Virus record (IMG/VR): IMGVR_UViG_2684623077_000006
Length of the DNA stretch: 13,925 bases
Source of the DNA: a virus
Taxonomy: Duplodnaviria > Heunggongvirae > Uroviricota > Caudoviricetes
Reading direction: 5' to 3' (one strand)
This document shows, one piece after another, positions 7,032 to 7,280 of the stretch. Under the pieces are notes generated by a model that saw nothing but the letters and a program-made list of their open reading frames with translations, was not told where the DNA came from and did no database searches. A program made the position numbers and the translations under genes. Numbering within the stretch: position 1 is the first letter of the stretch; the number at the start of each line of letters is the position of its first letter.

Positions 7032-7054
7032 TCAGCTTTTGTAAATTATTTGTG

Positions 7055-7074
7055 CGTGGTTGTTCGTGGTTGTT
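7055..7074. repeat. Tandem 10-bp direct repeat (cgtggttgtt x2) in the region upstream of the capsid gene
   Basis: Two perfect adjacent copies at 7055-7064 and 7065-7074. Confidence 0.5.
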
Positions 7075-7152
7075 CAGCGGCATGGCTGGCTTATTTTATC
7101 AGGCCCGAACCGTGGTTATTCTCGCCACTGTTGCCAGGACGCTGGGACCATT

Positions 7153-7191
7153 TTCCCGCCTGTTAATCTCATCAGCGTTAACAGGCGGGAA
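7153..7191. promoter_or_regulatory. 14-bp perfect inverted repeat (ttcccgcctgttaa / ttaacaggcgggaa) with 11-nt spacer upstream of the head operon
   Basis: Perfect complementary arms at 7153-7166 and 7178-7191; no adjacent U-tract on either strand, so more likely an operator or 5' UTR structure than a terminator. Confidence 0.4.
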
Positions 7192-7280
7192 GCCTGCATC
7201 GGTGTGCATTTCTTTTTGTTCTCGTACCGTGAGTCTTGCCGCGTCCTGGTGTTTTCCTCTTTGCATCAGGACTTTTTTTT

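Follow-up and report, generated by a model that had tools for sequence, protein, structure and literature searches.

A candidate control region with a structured leader ahead of the capsid operon of a capsid-forming phage satellite

The locus

The DNA analysed here, called the window throughout, is a stretch of 13,925 nucleotides from IMG/VR virus record IMGVR_UViG_2684623077_000006. It represents a capsid-forming phage-inducible chromosomal island (cf-PICI) of the EcCIEDL933 family: Pfam matches were found for all defining genes, in the order expected from the published layout of the family (bioRxiv 10.1101/2022.09.08.507074). The subject of this paper is the gap at 7032-7280, directly ahead of the gene for the major capsid protein. 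A preliminary description of the window took this gap for the control region of the head (capsid) operon, and that proposal holds, the gap containing a conserved promoter-like module followed by a structured leader. The reading preferred here is a dedicated control region of the packaging operon, composed of a weak promoter, a phased repeat array that AlpA would bind and a switch-type leader of ~150 nt. Its probability is put at about 0.5.

The genes and signals that frame the gap are the following.

1-1239, integrase gene (int), at the start of the gene order
1562-1858, gene for AlpA (Pfam Phage_AlpA)
7004..7031, + strand, intrinsic terminator at the end of the upstream (replication/regulation) operon; 9-bp stem and 7-T run, -16.0 kcal/mol when folded with its flanks
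7281..8450, + strand, HK97-fold major capsid gene, first gene of the packaging operon; Pfam Phage_capsid E = 2.3e-72, same start in RefSeq

Downstream of alpA lie two repressor-like open reading frames (ORFs) with a C4 antisense RNA module among them. Then come a DUF4222 gene, a D5-type primase gene, an iteron-rich origin, genes for a single-stranded DNA-binding protein (SSB) and PerC (to 6746), an ORF of 86 amino acids (6737-6997) and the gap. The gap is followed by genes for the HK97-type capsid protein, protease, portal, head-closure protein, connector, HNH protein, TerS and TerL. The same gene layout is found in the O157 island L002. The window ends at 13925, and the attL side of the island also lies outside it.

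All of the features first reported for the gap are present. The strong terminator ahead of it has its 9-bp stem at 7004-7024 and a run of seven Ts from 7024/7025. The tandem direct repeat consists of CGTGGTTGTTC at 7055-7065 and 7065-7075, both copies 100% identical, and a third copy of 91% identity lies at 7111-7121. The inverted repeat has arms of 14 nt (7153-7166 and 7178-7191) that are 100% complementary and 11 nt apart. Eight Ts (7273-7280), the sole run of at least eight in the window, directly abut the ATG at 7281. This capsid start is also the one in the RefSeq (PGAP) annotation of a 99.9% identical E. coli locus, and capsid homologues from ~80 loci start at the equivalent methionine, with MKKLLEL or MPRIIEL. 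Features that had been missed are a small hairpin (CCAG-GACG-CTGG, 7134-7145), a perfect complementarity of 9 nt linking 7134-7142 to 7241-7249, and promoter-like -35 and -10 elements at 7095-7100 and 7117-7122.

The listed features are real and non-random, and their roles differ from those proposed earlier. A 269-nt region folds with z = -3.83, and none of 200 shuffled sequences folds equally well. A perfect 14-nt inverted repeat is expected ~1e-4 times per 250 nt by our own estimate.

The gap and the capsid gene, from ~7026 onward, are common to 359 other E. coli genomes, including O157:H7. Over the gap and the 5' end of the capsid gene, identity with these genomes is ~84%; the gap by itself gives 74-75%. 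When 50,697 phage records were searched with the gap by blastn, no match came back. The part of the window from PerC rightwards has 99.9% identity to an island of E. coli SB0258h1. A comparison with island L001, the closest genome match (1-3500 of the window against 610-4700), shows a mosaic, in which the side with integrase, AlpA and repressor is different and the sequence from PerC rightwards is identical; the packaging module and its control region therefore travel as one unit.

The promoter module

Regions upstream of the capsid gene were compared across ~80 loci of other genera, further E. coli islands and metagenome contigs. One promoter module recurs in conserved form across 46 distinct loci that span many genera; it reads TTTGTAAAT..TTTGT.C..ATGTTT.C....TGTTTA, with the -10 element ~75-77 nt downstream, a distance counted from TGTAAAT that holds for the loci in which it was counted. 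The elements follow one another as TTTGTAAAT, TGT motifs at ~12, 21 and 31 bp, a variable stretch of 20 nt, frequently a hairpin plus T run, then a TTT-rich -35, a 16-nt spacer and the -10. The position of the -10 is conserved across the 46 loci, and its versions are TATTCT, TATCTT, TATGTT or TTAAAT. In the gap, the module is represented by three features.

7038..7053, + strand, conserved box TTTGTAAATTATTTGT, first element of the module, at ~-92 to -77; the most conserved stretch in the 46 loci
7055..7075, + strand, tandem repeat CGTGGTTGTTC x2, at ~-75 to -55, within a TGT/TTGTT array phased at ~10 bp; candidate docking site for an AlpA/Xis-type protein
7095..7122, + strand, predicted weak sigma-70 promoter; -35 TTTATC (7095-7100), 16-nt spacer, -10 TATTCT (7117-7122), start at ~7129-7130

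A search for a second good copy of the 7038-7053 box in the window found none. The leaders downstream of the module fall into unrelated sequence types, most of them with the same module upstream. Type A comprises the window, O157 and Shigella; type B occurs in many Enterobacterales and in other E. coli islands; types C and E come from Xenorhabdus and Photorhabdus. The first 50 nt of the gap are ~90% identical to those of E. coli islands that have other leader types.

Evidence that the module is a promoter comes from relatives. The homologous site in island L083, TTTACA-16-TATGTT, is called by a promoter scan with a score of 9/12, and the first leader hairpin (H1) begins there 6 nt past the -10. 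In L084, the gene upstream of the gap is on the opposite strand, so the operon needs its own promoter there. A weak -35 combined with a conserved, phased upstream array would have the look of an activator-dependent promoter. Judged from these comparisons, it is very likely that the gap carries the promoter of the capsid operon together with its leader. A first candidate, TTGTTC-16-TATTTT, was dropped when the alignment across leader types placed TATTTTA on the -35 of the conserved promoter.

Two further observations concern the promoter region. In L008 (2805-2825) and many type B, C and E loci, a terminator-like hairpin with a T run lies between the TGT array and the -10 (module positions ~35-60). 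Such a hairpin is present in about half of the loci, where the T run supplies the -35 region; the window retains only a vestige (7074-7089). In addition, ATTCTCGCCA (7118-7127), which spans the predicted -10, is 90% complementary to TGCCGAGAAT (7282-7291), the start codon's TG and the next codons, and the O157 variant preserves this as TATTCTCG and CGAGAATA. Given read-through transcripts from upstream, such pairing could occlude the start codon.

The repeat array and AlpA

The array is phased at 10-12 bp in the window and its relatives, and other leader types have positional equivalents of the tandem repeat, for instance TGTTTAC x2. Excisionase-like winged-helix proteins typically use helically phased direct repeats at recombination or regulatory sites. 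AlpA is of this kind: it belongs to the PHROG category "excisionase and transcriptional regulator", matches Pfam Phage_AlpA and has an excisionase-like winged helix-turn-helix (wHTH) fold.

The array recurs near the genes for integrase and AlpA. In L002, ~25 nt of it, TTGTTCGTGGTTGTTCCAC(A/G)TTGTT, have a near-exact second copy on the minus strand at 1748-1792, between int and alpA, and just upstream of int, at 382-406, is an array of TTGTT x3. In L083 the equivalent array spans 1267-1311, also on the minus strand.

Published work assigns AlpA a central part in induction. An alpA mutation abolishes cf-PICI induction (bioRxiv 10.1101/2022.09.08.507074), and overexpression of alpA alone makes EcCIEDL933 reproduce, as used for particle purification (bioRxiv 10.1101/2025.02.11.637232). 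AlpA is also reported, in work cited by PMC11773190, to activate its own expression. The array at int and alpA, the excisionase type of AlpA and these published effects together make AlpA the best candidate regulator, and binding of AlpA to the array is given an even chance.

The preliminary description had named AlpA, the PerC-like protein or a helper activator as the likely regulator. AlpA is retained as the best candidate. A helper-encoded activator is probably not needed, since overexpression of alpA alone is sufficient. PerC is unlikely as a general activator, because most loci with the promoter module lack it. L083 has a gene with a ProQ/FinO domain (an RNA chaperone) at the PerC position (6200-6730), and this gene was found in no other locus examined. 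Another candidate role for the tandem repeats, as replication iterons, was rejected. The iterons of the window are TCTACC/GGTAGA at 5510-5745, so the tandem repeats are not origin iterons; the TTGTTC array is moreover common to islands with three different replication proteins.

TTGTT arrays phased at 10 bp flank the integrase gene in sister islands (L002 382-448 and 1748-1792, L001 ~520-590, L083 1267-1311). A separate 12-bp tandem repeat lies just 5' of int, GGTGTAGTTAAT x2 in L002 and CGGTGTATCACTCG x2 in L001, and is probably an integrase arm-type site.

AlpA could also act in a different manner. In the AlpA-PalpB-tB system of P. aeruginosa, AlpA works as a processive antiterminator of the Q type, carrying transcription past the leader terminator of its target operon (PMC7969949). 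The protein has eight helices; a ring in the RNA exit channel is formed by an N-terminal segment, and residues 128-142 of its helix-turn-helix contact the DNA (PMC9371919). The capsid operon might accordingly have no promoter of its own and be reached from an early promoter, with the island AlpA acting like P. aeruginosa AlpA or lambda Q through the terminators at 7004 and just before the capsid gene. The family name is the same, the window protein matches Pfam Phage_AlpA, two terminator-grade hairpins stand in series ahead of the capsid gene, and in both systems a terminator lies in the leader directly before the first target gene.

The proteins and their sites differ, however. Island AlpA proteins have at most 98 residues and are essentially a wHTH domain, without the N-terminal ring-forming part. 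No sequence match to the P. aeruginosa protein was found in the PDB, where the sole match at E<=1 is a 73-residue chain named "AlpA family phage regulatory protein". The promoter spacer (7101-7116) contains no AlpA-binding element (ABE), GGGACG-N5-GGTA. A possible ABE in the leader, AGGACG-N5-ACCA, sits downstream of the -10, matches only GGACG and is treated as coincidence. The promoter-like module is conserved and follows a divergent gene in L084, and type B leaders have no terminator. Control by antitermination from an early promoter is therefore judged highly improbable.

The leader RNA

The predicted transcript begins with an untranslated leader, in which the following features are found.

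7134..7145, + strand, hairpin H1, CCAG-GACG-CUGG, located 5'-most in the predicted transcript; its GACG loop recurs in type B
7153..7191, + strand, hairpin H2, the 14-bp perfect inverted repeat with an 11-nt loop; the equivalent in type B covaries
7243..7280, + strand, hairpin H3 (7243-7252 with 7263-7272) and U8 (7273-7280); intrinsic-terminator-like, ending at the start codon
7268..7271, + strand, AGGA, weak Shine-Dalgarno sequence at -13 to -10, hidden within the H3 3' arm; anti-Shine-Dalgarno pairing -4.0 kcal/mol

Types A and B have a common architecture, with a GACG-loop hairpin at the 5' end, a long second hairpin and a third hairpin a few bases before the AUG. In type B, H1 is CUCA-GACG-UGAG inside GUGGC/GCCAC. 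The 3' arm of the third hairpin carries GGA at -12 to -10 in both types.

The strongest evidence for the hairpins comes from type B. The minimum-energy fold of every type B leader consists of H1, H2 and H3. When 28 type B leaders are aligned to the model, 97.4% of cells are paired and 12 pairs show double changes, a number that none of 500 shuffles reaches; slid controls of the alignment drop to 33-53% paired. All nine pairs of H1 are 100% paired and three of them have compensatory double changes, which are found in 8/9 pairs of the H2 equivalent. H3 is 98.9% paired, almost invariant, and barely covaries.

Within type A, variation in the helices is limited to G.U and loop changes. Among 16 distinct variants, the H1 region, the H2 arms, region 2 (a segment overlapping the 5' arm of H3, see below) and the 3' arm of H3 are unchanged. 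The window and the O157 type diverge in the loops of H2 and H3 and in the linker, through numerous substitutions and indels of 11, 2 and 5 nt; as these indel lengths are not multiples of three, the leader contains no conserved ORF. In some cases the pairing is kept only through G.U, as in H2 of L134 and in H3 of L158 and the window. This speaks for RNA structures rather than DNA palindromes. Taking both types into account, it is likely that the leader forms the three RNA hairpins.

The palindromes could instead be DNA operators. In this alternative H1, the 14-bp inverted repeat and GTCCTGG..CCAGGAC would be bound by dimeric repressors or activators, and control would be exerted purely at initiation. 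The motif CCAGGAC occurs three times in alternating orientation (7134, 7243 on the minus strand, and ~7266), H1 at +5 to +16 occupies a classical operator position, and covariation can be mimicked by a palindrome that evolves together with the protein it binds. Against this stand the differences among homologous leaders: H2 equivalents differ in sequence and length, some of them being three-way junctions, and have kept pairing alone, while the spacing of the arms shifts by several bases between type A variants. Pairing through G.U only is meaningless in double-stranded DNA. Operators are for these reasons a very unlikely explanation. The preliminary description had taken the gap for the likely site at which the late operon is switched on. 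On the comparative evidence, the 14-bp inverted repeat behaves as leader hairpin H2 rather than as an operator.

Searches for further leader types added little. Pattern scans of IMG/VR gave mostly chance matches and no new leader type, both with GCCAGGACGCTGGG, which also returned O157-type variants, and with TTTGTAAATNNTTTGT. The capsid protein, used as query against metagenomes, retrieved the window type as an exact copy along with many variants of type B, and no new deep type A lineage. Rfam gave nothing at E<=1 in 7032-7280, the nearest match being sroD (E = 0.3, 6946-7029) on the upstream terminator, and no matches in six type B and C loci.

The third hairpin and the ribosome site

The stem before the capsid gene is present, and the 6 bp first given for it are too short: counting G.U, it has 9-10 bp (7243-7252 with 7263-7272). 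Its energy is -14.0 kcal/mol, or -15.4 kcal/mol with flanks and U-tract, compared with -16.0 kcal/mol for the upstream terminator. Like an intrinsic terminator, H3 has a stable G+C-rich stem and a U run, here of eight residues starting from the stem base. A T run of 7 or 8 occurs in every type A variant, and the arms of H3 are kept while its loop varies. In O157, an inner 3-bp helix shortens the loop to 8 nt.

The capsid gene had been described as lacking a Shine-Dalgarno sequence. A weak one exists, the AGGA at 7268-7271, so that the statement is correct only in part. Type B leaders have GGA at the same distance from the start as AGGA in the window. The protease and terS starts are equally poor in Shine-Dalgarno sequences, as are those of several other genes of the operon.

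A promoter followed by ~150 nt of structured RNA and a hairpin with U8 resembles the small RNAs bound by Hfq or ProQ, and one sister island has a ProQ/FinO gene. The terminated leader might then itself be a small RNA of ~150 nt that acts in trans, like StxS of the PR'-tR' region of Stx phages, possibly alongside a role in cis. Type B leaders, however, have no U-tail, no Rfam match or target was identified, and the literature searched for small RNAs in connection with the O157 island (CP-933C/Sp7) describes no such RNA. There is little chance that this is the function of the leader.

The proposed switch

The segments of the leader that could exchange partners are the following.

7134-7142, + strand, CCAGGACGC, made up of the H1 5' arm, the H1 loop and an additional base
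7134-7141, + strand, CCAGGACG
7241..7249, + strand, region 2, GCGUCCUGG, overlapping the 5' arm of H3; perfect complement of 7134-7142 and proposed antiterminator/anti-sequestor partner
7241-7249, + strand, GCGTCCTGG

All 9 of 9 bases of 7134-7142 pair with 7241-7249, the duplex has an energy of -23.2 kcal/mol, and 0/500 shuffles are as good. In an attenuator, an upstream segment pairs with the 5' arm of the terminator in a fold that excludes the terminator and is of comparable stability, and such a segment is found in the window. The alternative fold is in fact the minimum-free-energy structure of the window leader, at -60.2 kcal/mol compared with -59.3 kcal/mol for the three-hairpin fold. 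In it H3 cannot form, and AGGA-U8-AUG is single-stranded.

A similar relation is seen in other leaders. In type B, the H1 loop and 3' strand pair with GGUUUCACGUCU, and the 9 core pairs are 97.6% paired. The position of the H3 bulge covaries with its partner in H1 (in three sequences U:A has become G:C), G.U pairing is preserved by two A-to-G changes in the loop, and the clade of L003 has retained the CGUC complement of the loop even though it lies outside the H3 stem there. Xenorhabdus, with a third and unrelated leader type, has three segments that follow the same logic, the last of which holds an AGAGG Shine-Dalgarno sequence.

The Xenorhabdus islands are an observation in their own right. 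Downstream of the same promoter module their unrelated leader has predicted minimum-energy folds that alternate among three segments. In L058, L066, L071, L076 and L078, ~150 nt upstream of the capsid ATG, the mutually complementary segments are CAUGUAGG, CCUGCAUG and CCUACAUGCAGAGG, the last with the Shine-Dalgarno sequence.

From these elements a mechanism can be proposed. AlpA would dock on the array upstream of the weak sigma-70 promoter and activate a start at ~7130. The transcript would begin with the untranslated leader of ~150 nt, containing H1, H2, H3 and then U8 just before the AUG. If all three hairpins form, H3 and U8 would terminate transcription, and in transcripts that read through, H3 would hide the weak AGGA ribosome site. 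If the loop and arm of H1 pair instead with the 5' arm of H3, the terminator would be destroyed and AGGA-U8-AUG freed for ribosomes. The leader would in this way gate capsid production past the start of transcription, as a terminator/antiterminator switch that is also a sequestor of the ribosome-binding site. A terminator/antiterminator pair whose terminator also sequesters a weak ribosome site is the simplest reading of the leader, and we infer such a switch at slightly less than even odds.

As to an input for the switch, the leader contains no conserved ORF or leader peptide, and no Rfam riboswitch or leader match. The conserved GACG loop may, speculatively, be a protein site or a nucleation site for a kissing interaction. 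The C4 antisense RNA (2926-3013) was considered as a trans partner of the leader and rejected, its duplex being no better than those of shuffles (41/300).

Several points weigh against the proposed control region. The window promoter, TTTATC-16-TATTCT, scores 7/12 and is not called by the promoter scan. A second copy of the array was looked for in the window and not found, apart from a degenerate T/G-rich stretch between int and alpA, and the AlpA of the window is only 56-60% identical to that of islands with a duplicated array. The loop of H3, at 10-12 nt in the window, is longer than the 3-8 nt of a typical intrinsic terminator, so that H3 is not listed by the terminator scan. Type B leaders have H3 without a U-tract. 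Termination is hence not a general function of H3, and any effect in type B would be on translation.

The alternative fold is also less well placed elsewhere. It is 6-12 kcal/mol less stable than the three-hairpin fold in O157 and type B (10 kcal/mol in O157), its helix is marginal in the shuffle test there (4-83/500), and covariation in this helix amounts to a single compensatory event in one clade. The link between types A and B consists of position, promoter geometry and the GACG hairpin rather than detected homology: a covariance model of type B (R1) fails to detect type A, and no sequence homology is detectable between the types, so that homology of the leader types could not be shown. 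Start of transcription, termination and switching are all predictions.

Some of these points favour a leader without a switch. It might be a constitutive 5' untranslated region (UTR) that stabilises the mRNA and tunes expression, in which H1 blocks decay dependent on the 5' end, H2 and H3 are structural, U8 is an S1-binding enhancer of Shine-Dalgarno-independent initiation, and the complementarity of H1 and H3 is incidental or the remnant of a duplication. H1 does lie at the predicted +1 in both leader types, the three-hairpin fold has the minimum energy in O157 as well as in every type B leader, and other genes of the operon also start without a good Shine-Dalgarno sequence.

Other facts speak against a constitutive UTR. 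The perfect 9-nt complement coincides exactly with the loop of H1 and the 5' arm of H3, and stays invariant amid diverging neighbours, H1 itself being unchanged in all 16 type A variants. In the window the alternative fold is the one of lowest energy, the bulge in H3 covaries with H1, and the clade of L003 keeps CGUC outside the stem. A hairpin with U8 right before the AUG would terminate transcription unless counteracted. The constitutive UTR is considered unlikely.

The proposed switch can be taken one step further. The leader could belong to an undescribed class of cis-regulatory RNA of capsid-forming satellites, combining attenuation with sequestration of the ribosome site. The GACG hairpin would be read by a satellite, helper or host factor, or the outcome set by folding kinetics, and capsid synthesis would be timed to the helper cycle as a checkpoint atop activation by AlpA. 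This extension is tentative and rather on the unlikely side.

Comparison with known systems

The closest resemblance in layout is to the late leaders of lambdoid phages. In the lambda PR'-6S RNA-tR' region and in StxS of Stx phages, as here, a promoter is followed by a leader of ~150-190 nt whose terminal intrinsic terminator sits right ahead of the first late or structural gene, and expression of the morphogenesis genes requires that a terminator be overcome. In lambda this is done by the protein Q, which is loaded at the promoter; the window shows neither a Q gene nor a Q-binding element. Unlike that of lambda, the leader here has its own antiterminator sequence, and its terminator hairpin contains the ribosome site. 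This comparison follows in part the summary in PMC9371919.

Attenuators and other alternative-fold switches, such as trp-type leaders, the lambda cIII mRNA and the leader of the MS2 maturation gene with its long-distance interaction, have three or four mutually exclusive segments. The corresponding pairings here would be between the two arms of H1, between H1 and region 2, and between region 2 and region 3, with one fold forming a terminator and hiding the ribosome-binding site and the other freeing both segments. Unlike classical attenuators, the leader here shows no sign of a leader peptide, a ligand pocket, a tRNA-binding element or a known protein site, and neither sequence nor Rfam comparison relates the leader to them.

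The array resembles those of the Xis, Cox and Vis proteins (lambda Xis X1-X1.5-X2, the P2 Cox boxes and P2 Cox at P4 PLL), which are also short T/G-rich direct repeats ~10 bp apart. P2 Cox reportedly activates the P4 PLL promoter. As in these systems, the repeats occur both by the integrase or att region, in L002 and L083, and before a satellite promoter. Unlike in them, the array lies at ~-92 to -55 of a capsid-operon promoter, and its repeat sequence differs from the Xis, Cox and Vis sites known from the literature.

The 5' UTR of ompA contains an RNA stabiliser with a stem-loop at the extreme 5' end. As here, the UTR is long and structured and precedes a very highly expressed gene for a structural protein. 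Unlike the leader described here, it has a normal Shine-Dalgarno sequence and no terminator. Overall, the element probably combines a late-operon leader, a self-contained attenuator and a sequestor of the ribosome site, with a promoter probably driven through an excisionase-type array.

Significance

Capsid-forming PICIs build their own heads and steal only the tails of phages. In the papers on cf-PICIs and on O157 CP-933C that were searched, the element is not described, and the cf-PICI papers do not address the timing or dosing of capsid production. The analysis yields a precise and testable map of the control region of the capsid operon. The promoter module is common across Enterobacterales, and the candidate AlpA array would link excision, autoregulation of alpA and expression of the capsid.

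If the proposed control is correct, it would explain the silence of the costly capsid operon in the prophage state. It would also provide a handle for engineering delivery particles based on cf-PICIs, and a new family of RNA motifs. If the switch is not real, the region would still be useful, as an ordinary promoter with a stabilising UTR.

Other features of the island

The ORF of 86 amino acids just before the gap (orf86, 6737-6997) encodes the protein that co-occurs most widely 5' of the promoter module. It has 34-49% identity to proteins in several other genera, including Enterobacter, Serratia, Proteus, Xenorhabdus and Gilliamella. Its only match is phrog_1957, of unknown function; a homologue search yielded 4 proteins, and the AlphaFold model, with a pLDDT of 58, is unusably poor.

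Rfam identifies a C4 antisense RNA (72.3 bits, 2926-3013) and an a1/b1 target (46.8 bits, 2809-2858) within 2809-3013. An isrK-like hairpin with a U7 tail accompanies them, and all three lie within a mechanically called ORF (2771-3454). The C4 elements are an antisense immunity module of the P1/P7 type in the early operon of the cf-PICI. In relatives, an Icd-like gene is annotated just 3' of the module.

The DUF4222 protein (3460-3759, 99 amino acids) appears to be RgdR (ECs1581) of the O157 island OI-51/CP-933C, from its matching length and island position only. RgdR is a reported activator of the type III secretion system encoded by the enterocyte-effacement locus (LEE) (PMC3378721).

Directly after the gene for the D5-type primase, at least 10 TCTACC/GGTAGA iterons in both orientations surround an AT-rich stretch (5510-5745), which is probably the replication origin of the island.

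Between the capsid stop (8450) and the protease ATG (8486), a 9-bp hairpin (AAAGGGGCT..AGCCCCTTT) followed by GGTGTTTTAT occupies 8456-8477. A possible role is that of an attenuator or stabiliser between the two cistrons, by which the amount of capsid relative to downstream proteins would be set.

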